Below, one piece after another: positions 13,178 to 28,477 of a stretch of 64,000 bases of DNA. This stretch comes from an uncultured Thermodesulfobacteriota bacterium (GTDB lineage: Bacteria; Desulfobacterota; WTBG01; CAIYCZ01; CAIRTM01): assembly GCA_964518865.1 (NCBI GenBank), contig CAZFIB010000013.1, forward strand, positions 2,777-66,776, given 5' to 3'. Positions within the stretch are counted from its first letter, which is position 1, and each line of letters begins with the position of its first letter. The notes beneath the pieces were generated by a model that had not been told where the DNA came from, did not search any database, and worked only from the letters and a program-made list of their open reading frames with translations. Both the position numbers and the translations under genes were made by a program.

Positions 13178-13267
13178 GACAGCATTCTACCCTGAAAAAA
13201 ATCGTATATTCACAGAATTTTACTCTAAAAACCGCTGTTCCCGGTGATTGTCGTATCGGCCCGGTAC

Positions 13268-13282
13268 TGGTACATCTGTAGC
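13268..13282 (+). promoter_or_regulatory. Candidate sigma-54 promoter upstream of the first FimT-like pilin gene.
   Basis: TGGTAC-ATCTG-TAGC. GG-N10-GC spacing is correct, with one mismatch in each element versus TGGCAC-N5-TTGC. It lies 70-100 nt upstream of the pilin ORF. Confidence 0.3.
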
Positions 13283-13355
13283 GAAATCAATCAGCATTTT
13301 TTACAGGTGTAGCATGCAACGTCCAACTGTTAAATACGAAAAAAGTGTTAAATGT

Positions 13356-14133: not shown

Positions 14134-16569
14134 ATGAGTTCTGAAACCATCATTTCACCGGTGTCCTCCGGGCACCAGTATCCCGGCGTGCCATCCCTAG
14201 GTAAGCTGACGGCGGTCTATTTTCTCTTTTTCGTTTCGGGCGCAACCGGTCTGGTGTACGAGGTTGTCTGGAGCCGGATGCTTGTGCTGGTGACCGGCAA
14301 TACCGCCGCTGCCACGTCGCTCATTCTGGCAGCGTTCATGGCCGGCCTCACCCTCGGAAGTTTTTTCTGGGGACGCTTTGTCGTGCAATGGCGGTTCAGC
14401 GGCCTTGTGCTGTTCGGCTGCCTCGAGGCCGCAACCGGCCTGCTGGCGCTGTGTGTGCCCGTGTGTATCAGCCGGGCCGCAGGGGTCGAAGCAGCGCTCA
14501 TGGCCGCGGTTCCCTGGCACCAGCCTGTGCGGTTCGGCTATTGTTTTCTGGTGCTTCTGGGACCTGCCTTTCTCATGGGGGGAACCTATGCCGTACTCGG
14601 GCACCACATTATCCGAAGGCGCCGCCGGTTCGGACGACATGCGTCACTGCTGTATGCCGTCAACACACTCGGTGCGGCTGCCGGCTCGCTGCTTACCGGT
14701 TTTCTGCTGATACGGCTGCTGGGGCACACGGGCAGCATTACTGCAGCGGCACTTGTCAACCTGGCAGTCGGCGGGAGTGCCCTTTTTTTCGGCCTCCGGA
14801 AAAGCCTGCTGCCGGACGTTGCCGAGCCTGACCGGCTGGGTGAGAATGGAACGTCGGGGCCGTCGGTGCCCCGGACAGTTGCCGTGACAGCTCTTGTTGC
14901 GGTGACCGTCAACGGTTTCTGCAGCATCGCCTATCAGGTGCTGTGGACGCGGCTGCTCGTGCTTGTTGTAGATAACTCCGTTTATTCGTTTGCCTTTATG
15001 CTTACCTGCTTTCTGCTCGGCATGGGGCTTGGCAGCCTCTGGCTCGGGATGCTTGACGGCTTTGTGCGCAGGCAGCCGGTTGTGACATACGGGCTGGTCT
15101 GTGCCGGTATGGGTATTTCATCCTTTTTCGTGCCCTTTTTCATAGCGTGCAGTCCGCCGGACCCGGCCCAGCCGTACTGGGTGTTCCTGCTGCAGCGGCT
15201 GCCCCCCTTTGTGTTCGTGCCGACGCTGTTTATGGGCATGAGCGTGCCGCTTGCCGCCCGACTGTATGCGGTTCGTGCCTGCGGGACGGGAAAGCGGCTG
15301 GGCATTGTGTACGGGCTCAGTACGGCAGGCGGTGTGCTGGGGGCTCTGGCAGCCGCTGTCCTGCTGCTTCCCGTGATGGGGGTTCGCACAAGCCTGCTGC
15401 TGCTGCCCGCCCTGAGCATTGTGTGCGGGGGGCTGCTGCTGGTGCAGCACTTCAAGGGTTTGCAGGCCCTGGGCGTTGCCGGCCTGATGACCGTTCTCTT
15501 CGTCACCGGGCCGCTGCTCATGCCTGAAAATTATTTTGCAGACAAATACAGCGGCCTGGAGCCGGGCAGCGAGCTGCTCTACTATGAAGAAAGCCTGGCT
15601 GCAACCGCAACGGTTTTCAGGCGTCCGGACGGCAATGTGCTGCTGTACCTGAACGGCATTCCCGAAGTCGACACCACCAGGCTGTCGGTTATGACGTTCA
15701 AGCTGCTCGGTGCGCTTCCCTGCCTGCTGCACCGTGGTCCCGGGCGCGCGCTGATGATAACATTCGGGGCAGGTATTACCTCAGGCACGGCGGCTCTGTT
15801 TGCCGACCGCGTCGACTGTGTCGACCTTGCCGGGCAGGCGCGGCGTATCGCCGCGCTGTTCAGGCCGGTCAACAACGGTGTTGCTGCGCTTCCGAACGCA
15901 ACCCTGCATATTGATGACGCGCGTCATTTTCTGCAGACCGACATGCAGCGCTATGCGGTCATTGTCTCCGATGCGACGCATCCGCGCTCCTATGACTCCT
16001 GGATACTCTATACGGAAGAGTTTTACCGCCTGGTAGCGCAGCGCCTCGGCCCCCAGGGTGTTTTCTGCCAGTGGGTGCCGTTCCACGGCCTGGCCCCGCA
16101 GCAGTTTGCAAGCATCATAGCGACATTTCACAGTGTGTTTCCTCACACATCGCTGTGGCGGATCGGGCAGGGATATGCCGTGCTTGCCGCAACACCGGAA
16201 GAACTGCGCATTGACGTAAAAAACATGTTTGCGCGTCTTTCCGCGCCTGATGTGCAGCGCGATCTGAAAATGGTGGGTCTCGACAATCTTTTTGAGCTGC
16301 TTGCCTGCTTTGTGATGGGTGAGCAGCGGGTCGGCGGCATTGCGCGTACCGCATCCACGGTCATCCGTGACAACAGCCCCGCAAACCTTTTTTTTCCGTT
16401 CACCGCGACCCTCGATGAACAGTACCAGGGATGGCCGCGGGAGAATTTCTCCCTGATCGCTCAGCATGAGGAGTCAATAGAGCCCTACCTTGCAAACATC
16501 AGCAGTAATCCAGAGGACCGCCGCAAAATTATCGACATCATGAAAAAATATGAACAGCGCCGCAGGTGA
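14134..16569 (+). CDS. Fused MFS-like polytopic membrane domain / spermidine synthase-like (aminopropyltransferase fold) protein.
   Basis: 811 aa. N-terminal ~12 TM helices beginning FLFFVSGATGLVYEVVWSRML. C-terminal SpeE-like domain ALMITFGAGITSGTAALFADRVDCVDLAGQARRIAALF...LHIDDARHFLQTDMQRYAVIVSDATHP. Confidence 0.8.
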   Translation: MSSETIISPVSSGHQYPGVPSLGKLTAVYFLFFVSGATGLVYEVVWSRMLVLVTGNTAAATSLILAAFMAGLTLGSFFWGRFVVQWRFSGLVLFGCLEAATGLLALCVPVCISRAAGVEAALMAAVPWHQPVRFGYCFLVLLGPAFLMGGTYAVLGHHIIRRRRRFGRHASLLYAVNTLGAAAGSLLTGFLLIRLLGHTGSITAAALVNLAVGGSALFFGLRKSLLPDVAEPDRLGENGTSGPSVPRTVAVTALVAVTVNGFCSIAYQVLWTRLLVLVVDNSVYSFAFMLTCFLLGMGLGSLWLGMLDGFVRRQPVVTYGLVCAGMGISSFFVPFFIACSPPDPAQPYWVFLLQRLPPFVFVPTLFMGMSVPLAARLYAVRACGTGKRLGIVYGLSTAGGVLGALAAAVLLLPVMGVRTSLLLLPALSIVCGGLLLVQHFKGLQALGVAGLMTVLFVTGPLLMPENYFADKYSGLEPGSELLYYEESLAATATVFRRPDGNVLLYLNGIPEVDTTRLSVMTFKLLGALPCLLHRGPGRALMITFGAGITSGTAALFADRVDCVDLAGQARRIAALFRPVNNGVAALPNATLHIDDARHFLQTDMQRYAVIVSDATHPRSYDSWILYTEEFYRLVAQRLGPQGVFCQWVPFHGLAPQQFASIIATFHSVFPHTSLWRIGQGYAVLAATPEELRIDVKNMFARLSAPDVQRDLKMVGLDNLFELLACFVMGEQRVGGIARTASTVIRDNSPANLFFPFTATLDEQYQGWPRENFSLIAQHEESIEPYLANISSNPEDRRKIIDIMKKYEQRRR

Positions 16570-16897: not shown

Positions 16898-17404
16898 ATG
16901 CTTTCATCCTCAAAAGGTTTTTCCTTGGTGGAACTCATGGTTGTCGTTGCCATAGTATCATTAATGGCAATCGTGAGCGTTCCGAGCATGACACGAGGCA
17001 TACCAAAATACCGTGTCAAGTCATCCGCAACCGACCTGGCGGCTAAGCTGAGAAAGGCCCGCTGGGTGGCTGTCAAGGAAAAGCGCGATGTGTCAGCCAC
17101 CTTCGATACCTCCAGGAATAATTATATCGTTGACGGAACAGAGTTTCCCCGCACCGGCGGTCTTTCATCGTATTACGGCAGCGGTGTCACCTACGGGGTC
17201 GGTGCTACAGGTGAGCCCCAGGCCGTTGACTGCGGGGGGGCTGACATCAAAACCCTCAGTTTTAACAGCCAGGGCCTTCTGGAAGACGGAGACGCGGTCA
17301 TTCACCTGATCAACAACAAGAACAAGGTATACCGGGTCAGGATCACCGCCGCCGGCAGCATCGTTGTCCAGAACTGGACAGGCGGAGACTGGGACCCGAG
17401 CTGA
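16898..17404 (+). CDS. Type IV minor pilin FimT/FimU (GspH-like), paralogue 2.
   Basis: MLSSSKG|FSLVELMVVVAIVSLMAIV prepilin signal. 168 aa. GGAAGAAATG RBS. Confidence 0.8.
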   Translation: MLSSSKGFSLVELMVVVAIVSLMAIVSVPSMTRGIPKYRVKSSATDLAAKLRKARWVAVKEKRDVSATFDTSRNNYIVDGTEFPRTGGLSSYYGSGVTYGVGATGEPQAVDCGGADIKTLSFNSQGLLEDGDAVIHLINNKNKVYRVRITAAGSIVVQNWTGGDWDPS

Positions 17405-17452
17405 CACAGGACCGCTTTGTTATAATATATACTGCATGAGGGGTTGATCGTA

Positions 17453-18250
17453 ATGAATACAAACCGCGGATTTACTATTATCGAGCTGATGGTAGCAATG
17501 GGGGTCTTTTTTATCGCCGTCACCAGCATCTATCAGACCTATCACTATCAGCAGCGGGCATACATCAAGCAGGAGCAGGTTGTCAACATGCAGCAGGAGA
17601 CACGGGCCAGTCAGTTTTTTATCGGTCGCGATATACGCATGGCCGGCTTCGACCCGACCGGAACCGCCGAGCTTACGCTTCCCCTGGGAACCGAAAAAAT
17701 TTCCATTGCAACCGTCGGAGAGCTTGAGTTCTACATCGACGACAATGCCGACGGCGACTACTGCAGCTCAGGGGGCACCGATCCGACAAGCTGTACGCTG
17801 GATGCGCGGGAACGGGTCCGCTTCGCCCTGACCAATGATGCAGACAAAAACGGCATCGCAGACGGTTTTCCCTGCCGGCTCGGACGGGAGTACAACAACG
17901 GCGGGCTGCAGCCGGTGGCGGAAAATGTTCAGGCGCTTGAATTCTGCTACGTTCTCAATGACGGCACGGAAACGGTTGCGCCGACGGCCGACGAGCTTCC
18001 GCTGATTCAGTCGGTGTTCGTTTCCCTGCTGCTGCGCAGCAGTCAGAGGATTCACAACTATCAGAATACGGACAGCTATTTTCAGGCCGGTGCCTCTACC
18101 AATCTGACGCCAAGCTTTCGCGGATCGCGCCCGTCCGAATGGGGGCCGTTTCTGGACGGAAACGGCAACCCCGATGCGTATAAGCGCCGGCTGTCGGTTT
18201 CCAAGTTCCGTTGCCGAAACATGGGTCTCGATCCGTTCGGCGACATATAA
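17453..18250 (+). CDS. pilW: Type IV pilus minor pilin PilW-like.
   Basis: MNTNRG|FTIIELMVAMGVFFIAV then YQQRAYIKQEQ...IRMAGFDP. 266 aa, which is PilW size. Confidence 0.7.
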   Translation: MNTNRGFTIIELMVAMGVFFIAVTSIYQTYHYQQRAYIKQEQVVNMQQETRASQFFIGRDIRMAGFDPTGTAELTLPLGTEKISIATVGELEFYIDDNADGDYCSSGGTDPTSCTLDARERVRFALTNDADKNGIADGFPCRLGREYNNGGLQPVAENVQALEFCYVLNDGTETVAPTADELPLIQSVFVSLLLRSSQRIHNYQNTDSYFQAGASTNLTPSFRGSRPSEWGPFLDGNGNPDAYKRRLSVSKFRCRNMGLDPFGDI

Positions 18251-18293
18251 GCTGCTGCGGTGCCTGTCAGGCACTGCTGCCGGAGGACACTAC

Positions 18294-18779
18294 ATGAAAC
18301 GATCTGCTACAGTACACAACCAGCGCGGATTCACCCTGCTGGAGGTCATTATTGCGGTTATGGTTCTTACGGTCGGCCTGGTCAGCACGGCGGCCATGCA
18401 GACGCGGGCCGTTGACGAGTCAAACGAGGCCTACCGGCAAAGCGAGCGTGTCATGAACTCCGAATACTGGATGGAAGATCTCATCAACCGCCCGGTCGTT
18501 GCCGACCGCGAGATCGAGCCTGATGAAATTTTCAGCGACAACTGTACCGGGGATCGGGAATGTGCCGACGGAAGCTGGTTTGACTCATCGTCGGTCGGGG
18601 TCGCCGCGTCAAGCAGCAGCAGCTACCGGGTTGTCCCCGGCAACCCCATGCCGTTTTTGATGACCATTGAAGTGAGAACCGAGCCCAGCTACGGGCACGG
18701 CGGCAGCGACGATCGTGATGCATGGCTTGATAAAAAAGCCGTAACGTTTTCCTATATCCGCTCGTCGCGATATAACTGA
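18294..18779 (+). CDS. pilV: Type IV pilus minor pilin PilV-like.
   Basis: MKRSATVHNQRG|FTLLEVIIAVMVLTVGLVSTAAMQTRAV. 161 aa. Start taken at the internal ATG 18294 of ORF 18174..18779. Confidence 0.7.
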   Translation: MKRSATVHNQRGFTLLEVIIAVMVLTVGLVSTAAMQTRAVDESNEAYRQSERVMNSEYWMEDLINRPVVADREIEPDEIFSDNCTGDRECADGSWFDSSSVGVAASSSSSYRVVPGNPMPFLMTIEVRTEPSYGHGGSDDRDAWLDKKAVTFSYIRSSRYN

Positions 18780-18849
18780 GTCCCGCAGGCGGGCTCCGAG
18801 CCTGCCGGGGGCAGTAACGCAAACACTACATAGAAAGCGGGTAGGTACG

Positions 18850-19521
18850 ATGATGCGCAATGATTCCGCCCTCGGCAATCAAAACGGCGTTGTGCTGGTG
18901 CTGTCGATATTCATGCTGGCGCTGCTTTCGATGATCGGAATGGCATCCATGATGCTTGGCACCTCCGAAATCGAAATTTCGGCAGGTGAAAAACATCACA
19001 AGGTCGCTTTTTACCAGGCGGAGTCCGGCCTGTCCATCGCGGCGGAGATCATTGAACAGCTTGACGGGTATGAATCGGTTTCCGACAATTTCCTTTTTGA
19101 CGACAACAGCACCATCGAGGTGGTGGACGGAGACTTTCTGTTCGAAAGCAAGGAAGTCAGTCAGGCAACCGGTATCTGGGACAAGGACAACCAGACCCAG
19201 GATTCGGTAAACATAAAAAAAAGAGGCCAGTCGGGTGAATCCATGTATCCGTATCTTGCCTCAGGGTCGACGCCCGATATCGTCGTCCGGTACTATACGG
19301 ACGATTCCCAGACAAACTATTCTATCGATATGAGTGTTGATGTCGACAAGGTCGGTGTGCGGCATGTAGTCGGAGGCGGTGCGGAATTCGGAGCCGGATC
19401 CCAGGGTATCGGGGTTGCATCGCACCGCGTGATTTATAATCTTGACTGTATCGCCACGCTGCCGGGCAGCAACCGAAACCCGCAAAATCACATTCTGGGC
19501 TATCAGCTGCTGCCTCGGTAG
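18850..19521 (+). CDS. pilX: Type IV pilus assembly protein PilX-like.
   Basis: QNGVVLVLSIFMLALLSMIGMASMMLGTSEIEISAGEKHHKVAFYQAESGL matches the PilX N-terminal domain pattern (hydrophobic helix, then EI..AG..........AF..AE.GL). Confidence 0.65.
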   Translation: MMRNDSALGNQNGVVLVLSIFMLALLSMIGMASMMLGTSEIEISAGEKHHKVAFYQAESGLSIAAEIIEQLDGYESVSDNFLFDDNSTIEVVDGDFLFESKEVSQATGIWDKDNQTQDSVNIKKRGQSGESMYPYLASGSTPDIVVRYYTDDSQTNYSIDMSVDVDKVGVRHVVGGGAEFGAGSQGIGVASHRVIYNLDCIATLPGSNRNPQNHILGYQLLPR

Positions 19522-19577: not shown

Positions 19578-22500
19578 ATGAAGCTATACTACAGGTGGAT
19601 TGTACTGCTGCTCGCTGCGTTGTATCTCGCGGGCGCGGCGGATGCCCAGGCGGTCGAGCCCGATGTCGCCGACTATGCCAACCCCCCGATGTTTTTAACG
19701 GCTGATGTGCCGCCGCTGGTCATGCTGGTTATGGGACGCGACCACAAGCTGTATTATGAAGCCTATAACGATGCGTCCGACCTTGACGAGGACGGAAACC
19801 TCGATGTGGGGTTCGATCCGTCAATCGACTACTACGGCTATTTCGACTGTTACAAGTGCTATGAGTACAATTCGTCGAACAGCCGCTTCGAACCCCTGTC
19901 GGTAACGGCCGACAAAAAATGCACCAATGCCTGGAGCGGCAATTTCCTGAACTATGCCACCATGTCCCGCATGGATACGCTGCGCAAGGTTCTTTACGGC
20001 GGCAGGCGCTCGACCGACACGGCGACCGAAACCGTGCTGGAGCGGGCCTATATTCCGAAAGATGCCCACTCCTGGGGCAAGGAGTATCACAGCATAGCCC
20101 GCGACGGCTATGATATCAGCGACTACACCCCGCTCAGCGAGCCCCAGGGCGGCACCTATCACCAGTTTGTCAGCACAACGCTTTCGGACGCGGGCGACCC
20201 CCTGATGCGCGTGCTTGAAAACACCATTTACCGCGTCTGGGAGTGGGTGTCGATCGAGCGGCCTGTGGCCAGCGACAGGGCCCTGCACGGCGGCAGCGGC
20301 CCGTCGATTACCGATAACGGTGCTACCGGGGACCCGGAAGACGTCACGCTGGGCGGCAGCGCCGGCACCGCCAGCGACAATGCGGCCGGCGGCACTACCA
20401 CCACGGATGACGATTTCGACGACGACAGCCTGGACGCCATGTGGACCACCGCCGACCACGATACCGACCCCGGAACGACGTTTCAGGAGACCGGCCAGGA
20501 GCTCGTCATCACGGCAGCCGGCGCCGACGTGTGGACGAGTTCGGACGAATTCGGGGTCGTCTACCTTGACGATGTTACCGGCAATTTCGACGTCAGGGTT
20601 CAGGTCACCCAGCAGCAGAATACCAACGAATGGGCCAAGTGCGGCATCATGGTCAGGAACGACATGACCCAGCCGGGCTCTTCGACCGGCTACTGCATCA
20701 TGGGTGTGACACCCGGCAACGGGCACTCGTTTCAGTACGATAACAACGATAACGGTTTCCTTGACTCGCATGTCACCAACACCGGCGTCTCCCTGCCGCG
20801 CTGGGTTCGCCTGACCAAGGTCGGCACCACGTTCACCGCCTACCGCTCGGGCGACGGCGTCAACTGGACCGAGCACACGACCCAGACCATTTCTTCGGCC
20901 GCCACAACCCAGGACGTGGGCCTGTTCGTGACTTCCCACAGCGGCGGCAACCTGAGCGAGTGTCACTTCGATAATTTCTATATGGAACAGACCGCCAACG
21001 CGGATCCGGCGTTCGCCTTTGACGACAACACGTCGACCAAGTGGCTCATAGCCGATGAGCCGAGCCTTGCCGATCCCGCCTGCATACAGTTCGCGTTCGA
21101 CTCCGCGCAGCGCGTCCTTAAGTACACCATTACAACGGCCAACGATGCCGAAGGGCGCGACCCCAGGACCTGGATTCTTGCCGGCTCCAACAATGAAGTC
21201 GACTGGACCGAGATCGACACGGTTGTCAACGGCGCGCTGCCCGCGGACCGCGAGGAAGAGACGGAGTTTATCTGCTCAAATCCGCCCGGCGACAACGAGA
21301 CCTATATCTACTACCGGCTGTGCATATCGGACACGAAGGATGCGGGCGTGCCGGGTGTGCAGATCGGCGAGATCGAGTTCCTGACGTCCCTCGACCCGGT
21401 GCCGGCAACCGCCACGCTGACGGACTATGTTGTGCGCGTGCAGGTGGGGGTGGCCTCGATGCCCGAAGAAAACGCCAAGATGTACGGCGAAGGCGCCTCT
21501 GCCGTGTACAAGCCGATCGGCCTTTTGCAGCGCCACGGGGAAAACGAACGAATGTACTTCGGGCTTATAACCGGGTCGTATGCCAAAAATACCTCGGGCG
21601 GCGTGCTGCGCAAGGGCATCCGCTCAATCGCCGATGAAATCAATCTCACGACCGGGCAGTTTACCTCGGTCAACGGGATTCTCAACACGATCGACACGCT
21701 GCGAATCGTCGACTTCAGCTACAGCAACAATTCATACAACAGCAACTGCGGCTGGATCACGACCCGGCCGATCAACGAGGGCGAGTGCCGCATGTGGGGA
21801 AATCCGCTCGCCGAGATGATGTATGAGGGCCTGCGGTATTTCGGCGGCAAATCCGCCGGCACGGCAGACTATGACTATTCCTCGGGCGATGACGTCGATC
21901 TCGGTCTTCCCAAGGATTCCTGGATCGATCCCTACGACCCGTCGATCGGCTACGGCAAGTGCGCCCAGGCGGTCATGCTGGTCATGAGCGATGTCAACCC
22001 CTCGTTCGACTCCGACCAGCTTCCCGGAGTCGACAGTAACTTCGGCTCGTTCAGCGCCGCCCTGGAAGACCACAGCGGCGGGCCGGACCTCGACGTTGCG
22101 ACGCTGGCCGATGTGATCAGCGCCCAGGAGGGCATATCCGGCAACTATTTCATCGGTCAGCAGGACACGACCTACGACGGGGCCTGCACCGAAAAGTCAG
22201 TCAGCGGCTTCGGCGATATCCGCGGCCTGTGCCCCGAAGAGCCGACCAAAAAGGGCAGCTACTACTCGGCTGCGGTTGCCTATTTCGGCCAGACCGCCGA
22301 CATAAGCGCCGAGGAGGACAATCAGACCGTCATGACCTATGCCGTTGGCCTGTCCTCACCGCTGCCGCGCATCGAGATACCGTTTCCGGGCCAGACCGTC
22401 ACCCTGGTGCCCTTTGCCAAGTCGGTCGGCGGATCGAGCATCAGCGCGGCCCGCGGCAGCTTTCAGCCGACAAACACCATTGTCGATTTTTATGTCGATG

Positions 22501-25500
22501 TCATCGAGCCCACCTACGGCAGGTTCAGGATCAACTACGAAGACGTTGAGCAGGGCGCCGACCATGACATGGACGCCATAGCATTCTACGAGTATCAGCT
22601 GGTGGACGCTGCCGGTGACCCGACCGACAATGCAAGCCTTGCAGTCGGAATCGATGTTACGCTCACCTCCGAGTATGCGGCCGGCGGCATCGCCCAGCAC
22701 ATGGGGTATATCATCTCGGGAACCACGCAGGACGGCATTTACCTCGAGATTCGCGACTGCGACACGGCCAACCCCGCAGGCGTCGACCCCTGCGACGGCA
22801 ACAACCCTTCGACCGACCCGGACTATTTTCTCGATACGCCTCCGGGCATCGGGCCGAATCAGGGCGCAGGCGACACCAACTGGGATGACGATGCGCCCCT
22901 GCCGCTGCAGACCACCAGAAATTTTACGCCCGCGCCGGCGGGGACGGGGTCGGCCAACCTGCTGGAAAACCCGCTCTGGTTTGCCGGCAAGTACGGCGGG
23001 TTCGACGACAAAAACAACAACGATCTGCCCGACCTGCAGGAGGAATGGGATGATGACGCCGACGGCGTGCCGGACAACTACTACTATGTCGTAAACCCCC
23101 TGAAGCTCGAGGAGGAACTCAACCGCACCTTTGCCGACATCCTGAAGCGCACCGGCTCGGGTACGTCCGTCTCGGTTCTGGCAACCAAGGGCGAGGGCGA
23201 GGGAACCCTTGTACAGGCCTACTTCAAGCCCAAGGTAACCGGCCCCAGCGCTCTCTACGACGTGATCTGGGTCGGCTACCTGCAGTCGCTCTGGATCGAC
23301 CGCTACGGCAATACGCGCGAGGATTCCAATCACAACTATACGCTCGACCTGTACGAAGACGACATCGTCAGGTTTTATCTGGACAATAACGAGACGCGCT
23401 TCAGGCGCTACGAGGTTACGGTGGACGATCCCTACGCCGAGAACAATCCGGCGGTGGACGATTTTCCGCTCGATGACCTTGAGCCCATCTGGGAGGCGGG
23501 TGAGCTGCTGGCGCTGCAGCCCGAAAGCCAGCGTAAAATCTTTACCTATATCGGACCGGGCACCGAACTCGAACCTGACACAAACAAAATCGAGTTCAAC
23601 GAAATGAACATCGATCAGATAAAAAGTTATCTGGGTGTCGAGGACAGCGCCTGGGACTATCTGGGCACATCCTACGAGGACCGGGCCGCAAACCTCATAC
23701 GCTTCGTGCGCGGCGTTGAGGATGACGATCCGCCGTCGGTCTATAACTATGAGCCCGGCCATCAGATCCGGCCGCGCAAGCTCGAACTCAGCGACGCTTC
23801 GCTTGCCACGTGGAAGCTCGGGGATATTGTCTACTCCACACCGCTGTCCATTTCAAAGCCGGTTGAAAACTACGGCCTGCTCTATGATGACGATTCTTAC
23901 AAGAATTATTACGGCATGTACAGGGACAGGGAAACCGTGGTGTACGTTGGGGCCAATGACGGCATGATTCATGCGTTCACCTCCGGGGTCTTCCGGCTCG
24001 AGGACCAGAAGTTTTACAGTATTCACGATGTCGATTCCGGTTACAACCTCTCTGAAATCCCCGACACGCTGGGAATTGGCGATGTGCCGCTGGGCAGCGA
24101 GCTGTGGGCCTACATTCCCCAGAACCTGCTGCCGCACCTGAAGTTTCTGCCGGACCGTGACTATCCGCACGTGTCCTATGTCGATTTGCGGCCGAAGGTG
24201 GTCGATGCCAAGGTCTTTGCCGATGACGGTACGCACCCCGAGGGCTGGGGAACGATTCTGATCGGCGGCCTCAACATGGGCGGCAAGCAGATCTCCACAG
24301 CGAGTGCGGGAACGTTTAAGCCCTGCTTTTTCGCCATCGATATCACCAACCCCCGCAACCCGGTCCTGATGTGGGAAAAAACCTACACCGGGCTCGGTTT
24401 CGCATCCAACGAGCCGGCAGTCATAAAAGTCGAGGATGAGTGGATGCTTGCCATCGGGTCGGGCCCCACCGACTTTGACGGATCGAGCACGCAGAACGCC
24501 AAGGTGTTCATCGTCGATCTTGCAACCGGCACCCTCCTGCAGACGTTTACCGCTGCGGAGGGCAGCTCCGTCATGAACGCTCCGGTGGCGCTCGACAAGG
24601 GCCTCAATTTCAATGTCGACGCGATTTTCGCGGGCGCCACCTATCCCGATGCAGGCAGCCTGAAGGCAAAGGTGTACCGCGTCACCGTGCCCCAGACCGG
24701 CTCGGACTTCGATCCGGCGGCGGATGCCGAGTACATACCCGACCCGACCGACAGCAAGTGGAACATGGTCAGGGTGTTCGACTCGCCGCGGCCGCTTTCA
24801 GCGCCGTTTTCGCTCAGCGTCGACAAATTCGACAACAACTGGATTTTCTGCGGCACCGGACGGTACATCGAAACCTCTGATAAAACCAATACCGATCAGA
24901 ACTATATTTTCGGGCTCAAGGACCCCTTCTTCAATCCGGACAACAATACGACCTGCTACGGCCATTATCCGGCGGTGGAGTGCGAGCTGACCACAGCCGA
25001 CCTGTTCAATGCCGAGCTTTTTAAAGATCAGATTCACAGCACCGGCCAGATCGACCCGGTCAACATCGACGGTGAAACCGTGGACAGCTTTTCCGAGCTC
25101 CTCAACCAGGCGCGCAAAGACGACTACCGCGGGTGGTACCGGTATATGTGTCAGGGCCGTACCGATGAGGACGGCAACTGCTACCCTGCCGGCCCCTCGG
25201 AGAGAAATATCAGCAAGCCGTCTGTCCTGGGCGGGATAGTGCTGGTGCCGTCGTTTTCACCCAATGAGGATATCTGCGGTTTCGGCGGCAACGGCCGGCT
25301 GTTCGCGCTGTATTATGAAACCGGCACGTCATACCAGCGCAGAATCGTCGGTGCCATGGATCAGGATATCGTGCTGGATGTGGTGTCCCTCGGCGAGGGG
25401 CTTCCCTCGAGCTTCGGTATTCATGTCGGCCTCGAAGAGGGCGGCACCCTGTACAGCCAGGACAGTACCGGCAAAATTCTGCAGATCGATATTACCCCGG

Positions 25501-25547
25501 CCTTCAATCCCAAAAGCGCCCCGATTTACTGGCGTGAAGAGCCCTGA
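19578..25547 (+). CDS. pilY1: PilY1-like type IV pilus tip adhesin (1989 aa) with inserted ConA/LamG-like and discoidin (F5/8 type C)-like modules and a C-terminal PilY1 beta-propeller.
   Basis: Signal peptide MKLYYRWIVLLLAALYLAGAADAQA. N-terminal PilY1 region (YEAYNDASDLDEDGNLDVGFDPSIDYYGYFD). LamG-like segment ~20405-20985. Discoidin-like segment ~21001-21385 (FAFDDNTSTKWL...WILAGSNNEVDWTEI). Propeller from ~23700 (GDIVYSTPL...VYVGANDGMIHAF). Ca-binding loop DPVNIDGETVDS at 25053-25088. Confidence 0.85.
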   Translation: MKLYYRWIVLLLAALYLAGAADAQAVEPDVADYANPPMFLTADVPPLVMLVMGRDHKLYYEAYNDASDLDEDGNLDVGFDPSIDYYGYFDCYKCYEYNSSNSRFEPLSVTADKKCTNAWSGNFLNYATMSRMDTLRKVLYGGRRSTDTATETVLERAYIPKDAHSWGKEYHSIARDGYDISDYTPLSEPQGGTYHQFVSTTLSDAGDPLMRVLENTIYRVWEWVSIERPVASDRALHGGSGPSITDNGATGDPEDVTLGGSAGTASDNAAGGTTTTDDDFDDDSLDAMWTTADHDTDPGTTFQETGQELVITAAGADVWTSSDEFGVVYLDDVTGNFDVRVQVTQQQNTNEWAKCGIMVRNDMTQPGSSTGYCIMGVTPGNGHSFQYDNNDNGFLDSHVTNTGVSLPRWVRLTKVGTTFTAYRSGDGVNWTEHTTQTISSAATTQDVGLFVTSHSGGNLSECHFDNFYMEQTANADPAFAFDDNTSTKWLIADEPSLADPACIQFAFDSAQRVLKYTITTANDAEGRDPRTWILAGSNNEVDWTEIDTVVNGALPADREEETEFICSNPPGDNETYIYYRLCISDTKDAGVPGVQIGEIEFLTSLDPVPATATLTDYVVRVQVGVASMPEENAKMYGEGASAVYKPIGLLQRHGENERMYFGLITGSYAKNTSGGVLRKGIRSIADEINLTTGQFTSVNGILNTIDTLRIVDFSYSNNSYNSNCGWITTRPINEGECRMWGNPLAEMMYEGLRYFGGKSAGTADYDYSSGDDVDLGLPKDSWIDPYDPSIGYGKCAQAVMLVMSDVNPSFDSDQLPGVDSNFGSFSAALEDHSGGPDLDVATLADVISAQEGISGNYFIGQQDTTYDGACTEKSVSGFGDIRGLCPEEPTKKGSYYSAAVAYFGQTADISAEEDNQTVMTYAVGLSSPLPRIEIPFPGQTVTLVPFAKSVGGSSISAARGSFQPTNTIVDFYVDVIEPTYGRFRINYEDVEQGADHDMDAIAFYEYQLVDAAGDPTDNASLAVGIDVTLTSEYAAGGIAQHMGYIISGTTQDGIYLEIRDCDTANPAGVDPCDGNNPSTDPDYFLDTPPGIGPNQGAGDTNWDDDAPLPLQTTRNFTPAPAGTGSANLLENPLWFAGKYGGFDDKNNNDLPDLQEEWDDDADGVPDNYYYVVNPLKLEEELNRTFADILKRTGSGTSVSVLATKGEGEGTLVQAYFKPKVTGPSALYDVIWVGYLQSLWIDRYGNTREDSNHNYTLDLYEDDIVRFYLDNNETRFRRYEVTVDDPYAENNPAVDDFPLDDLEPIWEAGELLALQPESQRKIFTYIGPGTELEPDTNKIEFNEMNIDQIKSYLGVEDSAWDYLGTSYEDRAANLIRFVRGVEDDDPPSVYNYEPGHQIRPRKLELSDASLATWKLGDIVYSTPLSISKPVENYGLLYDDDSYKNYYGMYRDRETVVYVGANDGMIHAFTSGVFRLEDQKFYSIHDVDSGYNLSEIPDTLGIGDVPLGSELWAYIPQNLLPHLKFLPDRDYPHVSYVDLRPKVVDAKVFADDGTHPEGWGTILIGGLNMGGKQISTASAGTFKPCFFAIDITNPRNPVLMWEKTYTGLGFASNEPAVIKVEDEWMLAIGSGPTDFDGSSTQNAKVFIVDLATGTLLQTFTAAEGSSVMNAPVALDKGLNFNVDAIFAGATYPDAGSLKAKVYRVTVPQTGSDFDPAADAEYIPDPTDSKWNMVRVFDSPRPLSAPFSLSVDKFDNNWIFCGTGRYIETSDKTNTDQNYIFGLKDPFFNPDNNTTCYGHYPAVECELTTADLFNAELFKDQIHSTGQIDPVNIDGETVDSFSELLNQARKDDYRGWYRYMCQGRTDEDGNCYPAGPSERNISKPSVLGGIVLVPSFSPNEDICGFGGNGRLFALYYETGTSYQRRIVGAMDQDIVLDVVSLGEGLPSSFGIHVGLEEGGTLYSQDSTGKILQIDITPAFNPKSAPIYWREEP

Positions 25548-25659: not shown

Positions 25660-27462
25660 ATGAAAGAGCGGCTGACCCTCCAGGATTACTGCGACATACT
25701 GTTGCGGCAGAAGGCGATTACCGCCGAGAGCCGCGCGATGCTGCTTTCACAGGAGTCGGAGCAGCGCGAAAAGCTTGAAAAGATTCAGGAGCTCAAGGGC
25801 GATGCGGGTGACTTTGCCGTCACCCCGGCTGAAATCATCGCCTCGCTGCACATAACCGATGCGCGCAGCAACACGGATCAGCTGACCGAGGAGGCGGTCA
25901 TGCGCGAGGTGGCCGCAGCCCTGGGGTTCGATTTCAAGAAGATCGACCCGCTTGAGCTCGACCTCGACGTGGTCACGCGCACTGTCTCGAAAGCCTTTGC
26001 CGTCAGGAGCCTGGCGGTTCCCATAGAGCTTCAAAACGGCGTGCTGAAAGTCGCGATGGTCGATCCCCTCAACCGGGAAATCGTGGACGACATTCACAAG
26101 GTTCACAAGCTGAACGTCACGCCGGTGATGAGCACCAAGTCCGATATCGTCAAGCTCATCCAGGAGTTTTACGGGTTCAAGCAGTCGGTGGTCAAGGCCG
26201 AGCGCGAGCTGGTGGCGCCGTTCAGCGATATCGGCAACCTCGAGCAGTACGCACGCCTGGGAACCGTCGGGGAAATCGAGTCGACCGACAAGTATATTCA
26301 AAACGCGGTGGACTACCTCTTCCGCTACGCGTTCGAGCAGCGCGCCAGCGATATTCATATCGAGCCCAAGCGGGAAAAAAGCATCGTGCGCTTCCGTATC
26401 GACGGGCTGCTGTATCCGATCTACTCGGTACCCGGCGTTGTGCACAATGCCATGATTTCGCGCATCAAGTCGATATCCCGGCTCAATATCGCCGAAAAGC
26501 GCCGGCCGCAGGACGGCAGGATCAAGCTGCAGCATGACGAGCGCGAGGTGGAAATACGCGTTTCCACCGTGCCGGTGGCGTTCGGCGAAAAAGCCGTGCT
26601 GCGCGTCCTGAATCCGGAGGTGCTGTTTCAGGACCTTGAGATGCTCGGCTTCGATGCCGGCGAACTCATCCGGTATCGCGGTTTTCTCGATCAGCCCAAC
26701 GGCATTATACTGTTTACCGGCCCGACCGGCAGCGGCAAGACGACCTCGCTGTACTCCTCGCTCAGGTTTCTTTCCTCGACCGAGACGAATATAACCACCA
26801 TCGAAGATCCCATCGAGATGGTCTGCGAGGACTATAACCAGATCGCCGTGCAGCCGGCGGTGGGCATCACCTTCGCCTCCATACTGCGCACCATTCTCAG
26901 GCAGGATCCCGATATCATAATGGTCGGTGAGATACGCGACCGGGAGACGGCCCGCAATGCCATCCAGGCCGCCCTGACCGGCCACCTTGTGCTGAGCACC
27001 CTGCACACCAATGACGCATCCTCCGCGGTTACGCGTCTCATCGATCTTGAGATCGAGCCGTTTCTGATAAGCTCGACCCTCATCGGCGTTGTTGCCCAGC
27101 GCCTGGTCCGCACGGTCTGCCCGCGCTGCACGGAGTCATACGATCTGACGCGGGAGGATTTCGAAGGCCTGGGCCTGCAGCTGCCCCCCGACAACCGCGA
27201 TGAGGTGATAACCATGAAACGCGGTACGGGGTGCCTGCACTGCCGGTCGACCGGGTATGTCGGCAGGGAGGCGGTTTTTGAAATTCTGAGCATTACCGAA
27301 AAAGTGCGCACGCTGATCAACCGGAGTGCCCATGCAGAGTCGATACGCAAAACCGGGCAGTCCGAAGGCATGAAGCTTCTCAGGGAAAGCGCCGTGCAGA
27401 AGGTGCTCAAAGGCAGAACCACCTACAACGAGGTGCTGCGGTGCATCAGCCAAGAAGCCTGA
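25660..27462 (+). CDS. pilB: GspE/PilB-family secretion ATPase (type IV pilus extension ATPase-like) with an N-terminal T2SSE_N domain and a tetracysteine zinc motif.
   Basis: Walker A GPTGSGKTT. Asp and His boxes. CPRC...CLHC. Confidence 0.85.
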   Translation: MKERLTLQDYCDILLRQKAITAESRAMLLSQESEQREKLEKIQELKGDAGDFAVTPAEIIASLHITDARSNTDQLTEEAVMREVAAALGFDFKKIDPLELDLDVVTRTVSKAFAVRSLAVPIELQNGVLKVAMVDPLNREIVDDIHKVHKLNVTPVMSTKSDIVKLIQEFYGFKQSVVKAERELVAPFSDIGNLEQYARLGTVGEIESTDKYIQNAVDYLFRYAFEQRASDIHIEPKREKSIVRFRIDGLLYPIYSVPGVVHNAMISRIKSISRLNIAEKRRPQDGRIKLQHDEREVEIRVSTVPVAFGEKAVLRVLNPEVLFQDLEMLGFDAGELIRYRGFLDQPNGIILFTGPTGSGKTTSLYSSLRFLSSTETNITTIEDPIEMVCEDYNQIAVQPAVGITFASILRTILRQDPDIIMVGEIRDRETARNAIQAALTGHLVLSTLHTNDASSAVTRLIDLEIEPFLISSTLIGVVAQRLVRTVCPRCTESYDLTREDFEGLGLQLPPDNRDEVITMKRGTGCLHCRSTGYVGREAVFEILSITEKVRTLINRSAHAESIRKTGQSEGMKLLRESAVQKVLKGRTTYNEVLRCISQEA

Positions 27463-27959
27463 AAAGCAAACTCAAAACACTCGAGGAGCTGCGGGACATC
27501 ATCGCCGGCATGAAACGCGAGGGAAAGCGCATCGTGTTCACCAACGGCTGTTTCGATATCCTGCACGCGGGGCATGTGTGTCTGCTGGAGGAGGCGCGCC
27601 GGCAGGGCGATGCGCTGGTTGTCGCCATGAACAGCGACCGCTCGGTAGCCGGTCTCAAGGGCGCCGGCAGGCCTGTGGTGCCCGAGCATCTTCGCGCGCA
27701 GGTGCTGGGGGCCCTGGAATCTGTCGACTATGTGGTCATCTTCGACGAGCCCGACCCACTGTGCCAGATCAGCACCGTCGTTCCCGATATACTTGTAAAG
27801 GGAGGCGACTGGAAGCCGGAACAGATCGTCGGACGAGATGTCGTGGAGCGGGCCGGCGGGCGCGTGGTGACGATTCCGCTAAAGTATGGCGCTTCTACAA
27901 CCGATATAATAAGCACGGTTATCAAAAAACACTCATATCGGTATGATTCAGGGCCATGA
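27441..27959 (+). CDS. D-glycero-beta-D-manno-heptose-1-phosphate adenylyltransferase-like cytidylyltransferase (HldE domain II / RfaE2 type).
   Basis: IVFTNGCFDILHAGHVCLL...NSDRSVAGLKGAGRPVVPEHLRAQVLGALESVDYVVIFDE...LVKGGDW is near-colinear with E. coli HldE C-domain motifs. It overlaps the pilB 3' end by 22 nt. Confidence 0.8.
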   Translation: MHQPRSLKSKLKTLEELRDIIAGMKREGKRIVFTNGCFDILHAGHVCLLEEARRQGDALVVAMNSDRSVAGLKGAGRPVVPEHLRAQVLGALESVDYVVIFDEPDPLCQISTVVPDILVKGGDWKPEQIVGRDVVERAGGRVVTIPLKYGASTTDIISTVIKKHSYRYDSGP

Positions 27960-28477
27960 ACTCAGGCAGCGTACAGGATGGGGGGCAGGTATGTCCTATG
28001 ACGGCTGATCAGGCAAAAAGGGTGCGCGGGTCACAGTTGCAGGGGGTGGAGAAACGGAAATTCCAGCGCCTCGATTTCCCGCTGCAGGTACAGGTAACGG
28101 TTGTTACCGAGGAGGATCCCGCAGGACAGGACCCCTCCTGCATCGCCAAATGTCTCAATGTTTCTTTGCAGGGCATATGCCTTGAAACCCCGAACATACT
28201 GCTCGGCCCCTTCAATATCCTTTCGGGCTCACCCGGTTCCCGGGAATATATTCTCAGGCTTGCATTCAGCTGTTTGCCGGACACGGCACCGGTGATCGCC
28301 ACCGGGCAGGTGTGCTGGTATGATGTTGCCTGCGAGAGCGATGATTTCAGATATCAGGTAGGAATAGTGTTTCTTGAAATCGAGGGCGACGGCAGGGAGC
28401 AGCTGAAGCGTTTTCTCAAGACAAACAGAAAAAAAACAGGCTTTTTCCAGTCACTTTGGGCACGGGTTGCCCATTGA
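27956..28477 (+). CDS. PilZ-domain protein (c-di-GMP binding).
   Basis: RxxxR motif (EKRKFQRLDF) and D/NxSxxG motif (LNVSLQGICL). The start may instead be the internal ATG at 27998. It overlaps the preceding gene by 4 nt. Confidence 0.7.
   Translation: MNSGSVQDGGQVCPMTADQAKRVRGSQLQGVEKRKFQRLDFPLQVQVTVVTEEDPAGQDPSCIAKCLNVSLQGICLETPNILLGPFNILSGSPGSREYILRLAFSCLPDTAPVIATGQVCWYDVACESDDFRYQVGIVFLEIEGDGREQLKRFLKTNRKKTGFFQSLWARVAH

Follow-up and report, generated by a model that had tools for sequence, protein, structure and literature searches.

Two lectin-type domains form a single cassette in a scaffold loop of a PilY1-family protein from an uncultured Thermodesulfobacteriota bacterium

Introduction

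PilC/PilY1 proteins are believed to determine the targets of type IV pilus adhesion, and most work on their ligand-binding regions concerns a small number of Proteobacteria and Myxococcus. A 64,000-nucleotide stretch of DNA from an uncultured Thermodesulfobacteriota bacterium (contig CAZFIB010000013.1; hereafter, the window) encodes a putative PilY1 protein that is far longer than P. aeruginosa PilY1 (~1160 residues). An earlier note, made from the letters of the DNA alone, described this protein as a 1989-residue PilY1 with a ConA/LamG-like domain and a discoidin-like domain between its N-terminal region and its C-terminal propeller, and proposed profile searches, structure prediction and a length comparison with relatives as checks. 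The locus raises the question of whether the two domains are genuine, how they are built into the protein and what they might bind.

PilY1 family membership of the window protein

The open reading frame at 19578..25547 on the forward strand encodes 1989 residues, and both peptides quoted in the earlier note are found in its translation. PF05567 (T4P_PilY1/IPR008707) matches residues 1414–1782 with an E-value of 1.6e-12 and a score of 47.5 bits (cut-off 28.1). Matches to the structure of P. aeruginosa PilY1, 3hx6, have E-values of 2.8e-13 for the single sequence (phmmer) and 4.3e-47 for the family profile. Judged by these sequence matches, membership in the PilY1 family is confirmed. The very large size of the protein and an N-terminus that reads as a Sec (SPI) signal peptide, where AlphaFold modelled an N-terminal helix (H2-22), are further traits of the family. 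An NCBIfam search with the whole 1989-residue protein gave no match, and an identical protein is present in public collections (P0001). The arrangement of minor-pilin genes with pilY1 (Table 1) is also found at three homolog loci (L016, L017 and L009), and several or tandem minor-pilin and PilY1 gene sets occur in this PilY1 family (L016).

Table 1. Features of the pilY1 locus and of its product (positions in the window)
Feature	Residues	Position	Strand	Basis
Four minor-pilin genes, upstream of pilY1		16898..19521	+	Pfam N_methyl, GspH, PilW, PilX_N; gene calls, identical Logan contig (L001)
Minor-pilin gene, GspH/FimU-like		16898-17404	+	Pfam
Minor-pilin gene, PilW-like		~17444-18250	+	Pfam
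Minor-pilin gene, N-methyl pilin		~18294-18779	+	Pfam
Minor-pilin gene, PilX_N		18850-19521	+	Pfam
pilY1-family gene, stop codon included	1989 aa	19578..25547	+	ORF list and translation, Pfam T4P_PilY1, 3hx6 match
Signal peptide (Sec), predicted, MKLYYRWIVLLLAALYLAGAADA/QA	1-25	19578..19652	+	Read from sequence
N-terminal scaffold part 1, ending ...RVWEWVSIER	26-228	19653..20261	+	Homolog identity, junction alignment
Cassette entry linker	229-271	20262..20390	+	Motif PVAG..G.G...TDN....DVT.GG.AGT
ConA-like β-sandwich, DUF1349 type	~272-472	20391..20993	+	Pfam, Foldseek, alignment A1 invariants
Discoidin / F5/8 type C / CBM32 domain	~476-605	21003..21392	+	7nsn CBM32 sequence matches, Foldseek, Pfam
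Cassette exit linker, DPVPATATLT	606-615	21393..21422	+	Motif P.P...ATLT
Scaffold part 2, starting DYVVRVQVGV	616-1413	21423..23816	+	Conserved in 120/120 homologs
DDDADGVPD, conserved motif of Dx[DN]xDGxxD type, in scaffold part 2	1158-1166	23049-23075	+	
PilY1 β-propeller, by Pfam	1414-1782	23817..24923	+	PF05567, 3hx6 alignment
C-terminal tail, PKSAPIYWREEP	1978-1989	25509..25544	+	Tail conservation across homologs
PilB/MshE-type assembly ATPase gene, downstream of pilY1		25660-27462	+	Pfam T2SSE (E 3.6e-123), MshEN
Cytidylyltransferase-like gene, downstream		27441-27959	+	Pfam CTP_transf_like
PilZ-domain protein gene, downstream		27956-28477	+	Pfam PilZ

The calcium loop of the P. aeruginosa propeller (DNNSDGVAD) aligns, on the AG that follows it, with DKGLNFNVD (residues 1673–1681) of the window protein, which has Asp at positions 1 and 9, Asn at position 5 and Gly at position 3 and is thus partially conserved. 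The conserved C-terminal region runs past the propeller to the end of the protein, and the tail motif KS(G/A)...W(R/K)E is family-wide among the homologs. In N. meningitidis PilC, a 12-residue C-terminal plug docks by β-strand addition on the minor pilin PilK (bioRxiv 10.64898/2026.09.18.752573), and residues 1978–1989 of the window protein are a candidate for a plug that may dock on a minor pilin.

The N-terminal scaffold is family-specific (Pfam PF28373, 'PilY1_homolog_dom'). The AlphaFold model of its second part is of high confidence as far as residue 1200 (pLDDT 85.9 for the AF2 model reaching this residue), and neither a vWA nor another PDB fold was found for residues 616–1413 by Pfam, Foldseek or the family profile. 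No VWA family was matched at E ≤ 1 in the Pfam scan of the window protein, no vWA domain occurs among the top 50 Foldseek structures for the model of residues 1–1200, and no vWA chain in the PDB was found by the family profile, the sensitivity being limited because lectin domains dominate the match list.

Structure of the ConA-like and discoidin domains

Profile searches, comparison with solved structures and AlphaFold/Foldseek modelling agree on a ConA-like domain at residues ~272–472 and a discoidin/CBM32 domain at residues ~476–605 and confirm both assignments. Matches to both families were thus returned by the profile searches that the earlier note had named as the test of its claim, and both folds by the structure prediction that it had proposed.

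Pfam DUF1349 (PF07081), which we take to be a family of the Concanavalin clan, matches residues 302–470 at a borderline level, scoring 30.5 bits in the whole protein, under the cut-off of 32.4, and 34.2 bits, over it, in the isolated cassette, and is assigned to homologs of the window protein in precomputed annotation. In the AlphaFold model of residues 229–620 (mean pLDDT 83.8), the ConA-like domain mostly scores 85–95. Foldseek matches the modelled domain to the DUF1349 crystal structures 3mep (TM 0.73–0.78, rmsd 3.3–3.7) and 3o12 (TM 0.75), with target-normalised TM values of 0.73–0.75 for the model of residues 229–620, and also pairs it with GH43 xylosidase C-terminal domains, L-type lectins, ERGIC-53 and legume lectins. 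Many surface-type motifs are invariant in an alignment of 20 cassettes with an average column identity of 56% (alignment A1), including the ConA-like motifs W.K.GIM.RND and QD.G.F..SH. The segment DDDFDDDSLD (residues 277–286), previously described as a low-complexity linker, is instead the conserved and confidently modelled first strand region of the ConA-like domain, because it holds the invariant F of the 'DDF' motif and is modelled as a strand.

The domain that the earlier note had called ConA/LamG-like and placed at 20405–20985 (residues 277–470) is therefore retained as ConA-like on the evidence of Pfam DUF1349 and AlphaFold/Foldseek. Its LamG label is not specifically supported, since Laminin_G_1, Laminin_G_2 and Laminin_G_3 of Pfam match neither the window protein nor the cassette at E ≤ 0.1–1 and a DUF1349/GH43_C2-type ConA-like domain is the best match. 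Laminin G shares its fold superfamily with the ConA-like domain. Tandem arrays of modules related to the ConA-like one are present in large proteins, and some of these proteins carry fn3, rhamnogalacturonan-lyase β-sheet, galactose-oxidase-like E-set or GDSL domains. The literature found on DUF1349 consists of passing mentions, with no characterised ligand or function among them. When the ConA-like domain by itself was the query of a word-indexed homolog search, the only matches were six short metagenomic fragments named 'regulation of enolase protein 1 (ConA-like)', an uninformative outcome.

The discoidin domain, previously placed at 21001–21385 (residues 475–603), is borne out by Pfam, sequence matching and modelling alike. 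Pfam F5_F8_type_C (PF00754) matches residues 472–549 with 28.1 bits, just below its cut-off of 28.2, and homologous cassettes score 39–55 bits, well over that cut-off; Pfam NedA-like also matches the domain. Using phmmer, residues 480–610 match the N-terminal CBM32 of the GH92 mannosidase 7nsn (domain E-value 2.5e-10), and the family profile matches both CBM32 domains of 7nsn (2.9e-12 and 5.9e-11) and the CBM32 structure 4a42 (1.9e-4). The modelled domain is paired by Foldseek with 7nsn (rmsd 2.6 Å, 32% identity), 4lqr (TM 0.67), 2xqx, 2j7m and 4zxe (TM 0.72), and factor VIII C domains are also among the matches to the cassette model.

Two motifs of the discoidin domain, AFDDNTSTKW (residues 480–489) and NDAEGRDP (residues 522–529), were located in the window protein. 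In the N-terminal CBM32 of NnGH92, ligand contacts are made by Glu105, Phe122, Asp148 and Arg152 (the ligand being mannoimidazole for Asp148 and Arg152; 7nsn). The window residues Asp523 and Arg527 in NDAEGRDP align with the sugar-contacting Asp148 and Arg152, the position of the stacking aromatic Phe122 is taken by Asp493, and Glu105 falls beyond the aligned region. The Arg-containing loop is absent altogether from 18 of the 26 homologs with a ConA-like and discoidin cassette.

Insertion of the cassette in one scaffold loop

The ConA-like and discoidin domains form a single 387-residue cassette in one loop of the N-terminal scaffold, ~800 residues before the propeller. The loop is bordered by ...WEWVSIER (residue 228) and DYVVRVQVGV (residue 616). 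The entry-linker motif (pLDDT 51–75) is common to ConA-like and discoidin, single-discoidin and double-discoidin cassettes, and the exit motif P.P...ATLT is kept at the end of discoidin-containing cassettes. At the same site, six homologs have a loop of only 10–20 residues, and relative to these proteins the modules are inserted, as had been claimed. The insertion between the N-terminal region and the propeller thus stands, but it lies in a loop of the PF28373 scaffold rather than at the boundary between scaffold and propeller.

The length comparison with relatives revises the account of the ~830-residue excess over P. aeruginosa PilY1, which had been linked to the lectin-type domains. The 387-residue cassette covers under half of this excess. 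Relatives without a cassette, the six homologs above, are still 1566–1678 residues long, and most of the large size is therefore typical of the family. At the DNA level, the cassette displays no cassette-specific GC anomaly, and its flanks contain no direct repeats beyond chance-level 18–28-mers; such signs of recent acquisition were dropped as evidence either way.

Alternative cassettes and their exchange among homologs

One insertion site holds alternative cassettes in the homologs, and scaffold and cassette are discordant between them. In the best 120 of 2749 homologs, the loop contains a ConA-like and a discoidin domain (26 proteins), two discoidins (7), one discoidin (4), PA14 (77) or nothing (6). 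The combination seen in the window protein is not unusual in this group, and the Pfam domains in question are already annotated for the 26 proteins in databases. The family profile pairs the PA14 cassette with 6qdi and with 6m8m, a Lap adhesin domain. Scaffold part 1 is 60–73% identical across homologs, whatever the cassette type. Two homologs with 90% identical scaffolds (P0024 and P0055) differ in their cassettes, with just 37% identity between the discoidin domains, and the scaffolds of a PA14-containing homolog (P0059) and a homolog without a cassette (P0065) are 79% identical. The cassette types are interleaved in a neighbour-joining tree of the scaffold, calculated without support values. 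Because the two domains occupy a loop in which relatives hold other lectin-type domains or none, they look like an adhesion module that can be exchanged.

Among the named homologs, the best is from a metagenome-assembled genome of a multicellular magnetotactic prokaryote. No literature linking PilY1 with a PA14 domain was found. For PilY1 and discoidin, the lone co-mention, in a source on the Methylococcus capsulatus secretome, was judged unrelated from the part of that source available.

The ConA-like module of the window protein is 50% identical (E 2e-43) to the N-terminal module of a Desulfobacter vibrioformis protein with another PilY1 architecture, although the propellers of the two proteins are only 28% identical and their scaffolds are without similarity. 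Besides D. vibrioformis DSM 8776, Desulfocicer vacuolatum DSM 3385 also has this ConA-like module on a PilY1 of another kind. We tentatively suggest, at somewhat less than an even chance, that the Desulfobacterales PilY1 loop is a recombination hot spot at which whole lectin-type cassettes are swapped between lineages, even between unrelated PilY1 architectures. If true, the loop would give closely related strains different pilus-tip specificities, as in the exchange of receptor-binding modules of phage tail fibres, and in aggregate- or consortium-forming Desulfobacterota swapped cassettes could set the surfaces or partner cells to which a pilus attaches.

Probable function of the cassette

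We favour, with moderate confidence, a cassette that serves at the pilus tip as an adhesin module, one that can be exchanged and probably binds glycans. From what is known of the PilY1 family, the window protein would be displayed at the tip of a type IVa pilus as the large non-pilin component on the minor-pilin cap. The scaffold loop 228/616 would provide the docking site for exchangeable β-sandwich modules, and the ConA-like and CBM32/discoidin cassette would form an adhesive, carbohydrate-recognising pilus head. Upon pilus extension, the lectin-type modules would bind glycan on a surface, a matrix or a neighbouring cell, and retraction would then pull on this contact. Related Desulfobacterales have two discoidins, one discoidin, PA14 or nothing in place of the whole cassette, and such a replacement would change what the pilus sticks to. 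CBM32, ConA-like and PA14 domains are typical carbohydrate-binding families, and the usual roles of these families suggest that the cassette binds glycans. The view of the earlier note that the protein 'appears specialised for glycan binding at the pilus tip' is a reasonable proposal on these grounds.

Discoidin and ConA-like folds elsewhere bind proteins and lipids too. Phospholipid (factors V and VIII) and collagen (DDR) are ligands of F5/8 type C domains, and the ligands of LamG/ConA-like domains include many that are not glycans. The cassette could accordingly be a tip adhesin built on generic binding scaffolds with a non-carbohydrate ligand, such as a partner-cell protein or lipid or a mineral or particle surface, an alternative that we regard as unlikely but worth weighing. 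The nearest relatives of its discoidin domain are bacterial glycosidase-attached CBM32s and not eukaryotic lipid binders, even though factor VIII C domains appear among the Foldseek matches. The site itself points both ways: Asp523 and Arg527 are kept in the window protein, but Asp493 occupies the place of the stacking aromatic found in the closest solved CBM32 site, and most homologs with the same cassette type lack the sugar-contacting Arg loop. The ConA-like domain fits this alternative in that DUF1349 has no ligand in the literature, whereas the alternative PA14 cassette likewise comes from a sugar-binding adhesin family.

A mainly structural role, in which the cassette, lacking a specific ligand, would space out or stabilise the scaffold or protect it from proteases, phages or recognition, appears improbable. 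Whole cassettes are repeatedly replaced by binding-type modules between proteins that are 79–90% identical, which is expected of a specificity determinant and not of a neutral spacer and thus counts against such a role, as do the invariant surface-type motifs of alignment A1. On the side of a structural role, the CBM32s of NnGH92 changed substrate affinity little and chiefly kept the enzyme stable, being needed for its structural integrity (7nsn study), so that such modules can be structural, and the six family members without any cassette suggest that it is dispensable in those proteins.

An enzymatic role of the ConA-like domain, for instance as a glycoside hydrolase or lyase with which the pilus tip would degrade polysaccharide, is highly improbable and was rejected. 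The ConA-like superfamily includes glucanases and the Foldseek matches include GH43 xylosidases, but these enzymes resemble the domain in their non-catalytic C-terminal part (Pfam GH43_C2). The Pfam and NCBIfam scans returned no glycoside hydrolase family, and 3mep and 3o12, which match best in structure, are small, functionally uncharacterised DUF1349 proteins.

Significance of the cassette

Modular N-termini of PilC/PilY1 proteins are an already established idea, to which the cassette described here adds another module set. The family offers a clean natural experiment, with one conserved scaffold and a single loop that has at least five alternative contents, and with proteins that are otherwise 79–90% identical and differ only in the loop cassette. 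If the cassette does bind glycans, it would offer a direct way to study what sulfate-reducing Desulfobacterales adhere to in sediments, biofilms and consortia, a first ligand for the large family of DUF1349-type ConA-like modules and a scaffold for domain-swap work on pilus-tip display. If it does not, the finding would amount to an ordinary multi-domain adhesin annotation.

Comparison with known systems

The window protein and P. aeruginosa PilY1 (3hx6, the C-terminal domain) have in common a homologous β-propeller, a gene located after minor pilins and the character of a large secreted non-pilin. The window protein differs in that no vWA domain was detected by Pfam or Foldseek, the calcium loop of the propeller is only partly conserved, and the N-terminal ~1400 residues form a different, PF28373 scaffold with a lectin-type cassette.

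M. xanthus PilY1.1 and PilY1.2 carry a lectin-like DUF4114 domain and PilY1.3 carries a vWA domain; PilY1.1 is linked to exopolysaccharide-dependent motility, and the variable N-terminal modules are proposed to set the adhesion substrate (PMC9109919). As in the window protein, variable modules are combined with a conserved C-terminal PilY1 domain, which in M. xanthus serves pilus priming. The modules differ in type and position, being a DUF1349 ConA-like domain and a CBM32 in a scaffold loop in the window protein and a DUF4114 domain that forms the N-terminus in M. xanthus. A DUF4114-type architecture in Desulfobacter vibrioformis carries the same ConA-like module as the window protein, at its N-terminus.

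The PA14 domains of RTX/Lap adhesins (6qdi and 6m8m) resemble the alternative cassette of 77 of the 120 homologs and are absent from the window protein. The closest relatives of its second domain are the CBM32s of glycosidases (Neobacillus novalis GH92, 7nsn; Micromonospora viridifaciens sialidase; Clostridium perfringens). The pattern NDA.GRDP..W, including the ligand-contacting Asp and Arg, is common to the window domain and the N-terminal CBM32 of 7nsn. The window domain differs in that it resides on a pilus protein instead of an enzyme and has Asp493 in place of the stacking Phe122.

The closest functional analogue of the ConA-like domain, likened by fold superfamily, is the S. sanguinis minor pilin PilC, which has a ConA-like lectin module and belongs to a minor-pilin complex whose glycan binding is reported in the title and abstract of the study (PMC9934059). 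The module is grafted on a pilin and not on a PilY1 protein, and the organism is monoderm.

N. meningitidis PilC1 and PilC2 are tip adhesins with a conserved propeller and a variable N-terminus that is predicted to be lectin-like (bioRxiv 10.64898/2026.09.18.752573). The window protein likewise combines a conserved propeller with a family-conserved C-terminal tail, for which docking is a candidate function. The N-terminus of N. meningitidis PilC is without recognisable Pfam domains, whereas that of the window protein contains two CBM-type domains.

The pilY1 locus and its product

The 1989-residue product of the window's pilY1 gene is assigned to the PilC/PilY1 family on the basis of its propeller, gene context and signal peptide, each of which was tested and found. 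Pfam places the PilY1 β-propeller at residues 1414–1782 (E 1.6e-12, whole protein), and the C-terminal domain structure of Pseudomonas aeruginosa PilY1 (3hx6) is matched with an E-value of 2.8e-13 by the single sequence and 4.3e-47 by the family profile. The protein has minor-pilin neighbours and the family-conserved terminal motif KS(G/A)...W(R/K)E. A vWA domain was not detected by Pfam, among the top Foldseek hits or with the family profile against the PDB, searches of limited sensitivity; on this basis, the protein is not a Pseudomonas-type vWA PilY1.

The calcium loop of the propeller (DKGLNFNVD, residues 1673–1681, window 24594–24620) is only partly conserved relative to the P. aeruginosa loop DNNSDGVAD, with Gly at position 3 and Asn at position 5. 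A Dx[DN]xDGxxD-type calcium-binding motif, DDDADGVPD (residues 1158–1166, window 23049–23075), lies in the scaffold, far on the N-terminal side of the propeller. W1157, D1158 and D1166 never vary across 55 family members, and D1162 and G1163 hardly do. The motif may bind calcium as a second site, comparable to the integrin-type one in P. aeruginosa PilY1.

A Logan contig (run SRR7048224) encodes an identical protein flanked by the same genes. Housekeeping genes (IleRS, LeuRS, DnaX, a sigma-70 factor, SRP RNA and tRNA-Ser) occupy the window elsewhere, so the locus is ordinary chromosomal DNA. At its N-terminus the assembly ATPase adjoining pilY1 has a domain of MshEN type, and two genes further on comes one for a PilZ-domain protein, a combination that hints at c-di-GMP control of the pilus. 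The region of the extra GspH-like gene and the following 811-residue ORF is unusual for the window in GC (0.61) and AT skew (-0.28). The closest relatives of the window protein come from Desulfobacterales MAGs, and the best named one is PilY1 of 'Candidatus Magnetomoraceae bacterium gMMP-15' (51% identity).

Features of the window and of homologous loci (L-numbers denote homolog contigs)
Feature	Position	Strand	Remarks
pilY1-family gene	19578-25547	+	ORF of 1989 residues
Four minor-pilin genes	16898-19521		directly before pilY1; GspH/FimU-like, PilW-like, N-methyl and PilX_N model matches
PilB/MshE-type ATPase, cytidylyltransferase-like and PilZ-domain genes	25660-28477		downstream of pilY1; Pfam
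Extra GspH-like pilin gene	13248-13907		precedes the minor-pilin operon by ~3 kb
811-aa ORF	14134-16569		weak spermine-synthase-like match only
Sensor kinase (Cache/PAS/HisKA) and sigma-54-dependent response regulator	4932-8377		precede the pilin genes by ~9 kb; possible PilS/PilR-like pair
tRNA-Ser(GGA), small SRP RNA immediately after	32671-32883		upstream of dnaX
ORF of 894 aa	51701-54385		no Pfam match at 1e-5 or 1e-3
ORF of 605 aa	41-1858		no Pfam match at 1e-5 or 1e-3
ORF of 356 aa	46418-47488	-	no Pfam match at 1e-5 or 1e-3
Second PilY1 architecture	L009:7764-12533		Desulfobacter vibrioformis DSM 8776
Second PilY1 architecture	L013:7650-12665
BrnT toxin-family gene and small ORF	L017:6658-7225		gMMP-15 operon, between minor-pilin genes and pilX/pilY1

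One scaffold loop with alternative contents

The window protein and its 119 best homologs (the best 120 of 2749; BLAST and MAFFT) share two conserved blocks, residues 1–228 and 616–1988, which enclose a variable stretch with sharp junctions (...R.W.WVSIER before it and DY.VRV.VGV after it). This loop contains a PA14 domain in 77 of the 120 proteins (~175–225 aa), a ConA-like plus a discoidin domain in 26 including the window protein (375–399 aa), two discoidin domains in seven (~350 aa), one discoidin domain in four (~195 aa) and no cassette in the remaining six (10–20 aa). The PA14 cassette matches a PA14 domain-containing protein (6qdi) and the large adhesion protein Lap (6m8m).

The earlier note had described a protein roughly 830 aa longer than P. 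aeruginosa PilY1, with two inserted domains. The 387-residue insertion is real, but most of the excess belongs to the family-specific scaffold, which precomputed annotation names PF28373 'PilY1_homolog_dom'. Pseudomonas PilY1 has ~1160 residues and the cassette makes up less than half of the excess over it, because relatives without a cassette already have 1566–1678 residues. Material is also added elsewhere in some homologs: P0063 (1990 aa) has extra sequence near the C-terminus with EF-hand Pfam matches, and P0002 (2194 aa) has an insertion of ~230 residues ahead of its final 54 residues. Variability in the family is thus not confined to the cassette loop.

Structure of the cassette

An AlphaFold2 model of residues 229–620, built from 20 homologous cassettes, is all-β and consists of two domains (mean pLDDT 83.8). 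Pfam assigns DUF1349, a member of the Concanavalin clan, to residues 302–470 of the whole protein (30.5 bits) and to the isolated cassette with 34.2 bits against a cut-off of 32.4. In a Foldseek search of the PDB, the first domain superposes on the DUF1349 structures 3mep and 3o12 with target-normalised TM-scores of 0.73–0.78; further matches are the ConA-like C-terminal domain of GH43 β-xylosidases and the L-type lectins ERGIC-53, Emp47p and legume lectins. The second domain is matched by Pfam as F5/8 type C (residues 472–549), and residues 480–610 align with the N-terminal CBM32 of the Neobacillus novalis GH92 mannosidase NnGH92 (7nsn; phmmer domain E 2.5e-10). The cassette profile matches both CBM32 modules of 7nsn (2.9e-12 and 5.9e-11) and a Clostridium CBM32 (4a42, 1.9e-4), and Foldseek retrieved 4lqr, 2xqx, 2j7m, 4zxe and the galactose-binding module of the M. 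viridifaciens sialidase. Taken together, the profiles, model and Foldseek matches place both domain identities well beyond chance.

These data bear out the discoidin-like domain that the earlier note had recognized at residues 475–603. The note's ConA/LamG-like domain (residues 277–470) holds as ConA-like but not as LamG specifically, since no Laminin_G profile matches the window protein. The segment DDDFDDDSLD (residues 277–286), previously read as a linker, is instead part of the ConA-like domain's first-strand region, which is conserved and modelled with confidence and has an invariant Phe in its DDF motif. The actual entry linker comprises residues 229–271 and has its own conserved motif.

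Distribution of cassettes and of the ConA-like module

Several comparisons speak for an exchange of cassettes among family members. Cassette types are interleaved on a tree built from the scaffold only (neighbour-joining, without support values). The homologs P0024 (ConA-like plus discoidin) and P0055 (two discoidins) have scaffolds 90% identical over 1387 positions; their cassettes share 58% identity over the first 36 residues and their discoidin domains 37%. The scaffolds of P0021 and P0040, with different cassettes, are 81% identical, and those of P0059 (PA14) and P0065 (no cassette) 79%. The window scaffold (616–1330) is 61–64% identical both to PA14-type proteins and to its nearest ConA-like plus discoidin relatives. 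Neither compositional anomaly nor flanking repeats were found around the window cassette. One homologous contig (L016:1-15186; GCA_026388865.1, JAPLIX010000439.1) carries two tandem sets of minor-pilin genes followed by a PilY1 gene, both products (P0018 and P0019) having a PA14-type cassette, a layout reminiscent of Myxococcus with its multiple PilY1 clusters.

In a scan of one genome per species, the full cassette is confined to seven MAGs of Desulfobacterota (Desulfobacterales, Desulfobacteraceae, Desulfobacula and Desulfohalobiaceae), and seven further loci have the ConA-like half alone. Two of the latter, from D. vibrioformis DSM 8776 and a Desulfatiglandales MAG, were read and encode a second PilY1 architecture of 1589–1671 residues, in which an N-terminal DUF1349-type ConA-like domain is combined with an InlB B-repeat (Flg_new_2), DUF4114 and the propeller; the other five (L010–L012, L014 and L015) probably share it. 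This architecture is present in cultured strains, and in D. vibrioformis its gene comes after GspH/PilW/PilX-type pilin genes. The ConA-like domains of the window and D. vibrioformis proteins are 50% identical (E 2e-43), whereas identity falls to 28% in the propellers and the scaffolds lack similarity, so the module has passed from one PilY1 lineage to another.

When 1.84 billion representative proteins were searched in full by HMMER with a profile of the cassette, 2060 were retrieved at E ≤ 1e-30. Among the best 150 of these, about six match the entire two-domain cassette, at PilY1-like positions where the protein start is present. The others match with the ConA-like module alone, often in 3–11 tandem copies in proteins of 1000–6700 residues, and the module is part of a very large, uncharacterised family, represented here by P0127–P0274. 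DUF1349 is repeated in four or five of seven such proteins scanned (the family includes P0127, P0131, P0133, P0134 and P0136), and some of the seven contain fn3, GDSL esterase, rhamnogalacturonan-lyase β-sheet, galactose-oxidase E-set or LamG domains. Such domains are the usual company of carbohydrate-binding modules, an association, not proof, that ties the ConA-like module to carbohydrate binding.

Proposed role and comparison with known pilus proteins

PilC/PilY1 proteins attach to the minor-pilin cap through their C-terminal propeller and a short terminal 'plug', are required for priming assembly, and adhere by means of a variable N-terminal region (PMC9109919; bioRxiv 10.64898/2026.09.18.752573). 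The window cassette, in a loop predicted to be exposed, would be displayed at the distal pilus end and would bind a glycan there. That it is an exchangeable, glycan-binding tip adhesin module is the reading we moderately favour. Glycan binding is suggested because all alternative cassettes come from sugar-binding families and because the discoidin domain is most closely related to glycosidase CBM32s. The NDAEGRDP motif also keeps Asp523 and Arg527, which align with the NnGH92 CBM32 residues Asp148 and Arg152 that contact mannoimidazole.

Other observations point away from a glycan. The stacking aromatic Phe122 of the NnGH92 CBM32 aligns with Asp493 of the window protein, in 18 of the 26 ConA-like plus discoidin homologs the loop is shorter and lacks the Arg, and the literature offers no known ligand for DUF1349. 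The NnGH92 CBM32s, too, served mainly as structural elements. A non-glycan ligand is conceivable but unlikely, and a mainly structural role for the cassette is less probable still. A catalytic cassette deserves very little credence.

The N-terminal recruitment of diverse ligand-binding modules by PilC/PilY1 has already been published (PMC9109919; bioRxiv 10.64898/2026.09.18.752573), and public databases already assign DUF1349 and F5/8 type C to homologs, some of which are named 'discoidin domain-containing protein'. The searchable literature yielded no description of this PilY1 scaffold family, of a fixed insertion loop with five alternative contents or of a ConA-like module common to two PilY1 architectures. 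Glycan binding by the window cassette is further suggested by analogous lectin modules on other pili. The Streptococcus sanguinis pilin PilC carries a ConA-like module, and its minor-pilin complex is reported to bind glycans (PMC9934059). Likewise, Myxococcus xanthus PilY1.1 bears a lectin-like DUF4114 module (PMC9109919), an analogue of the pilus-borne cassette of the window protein.
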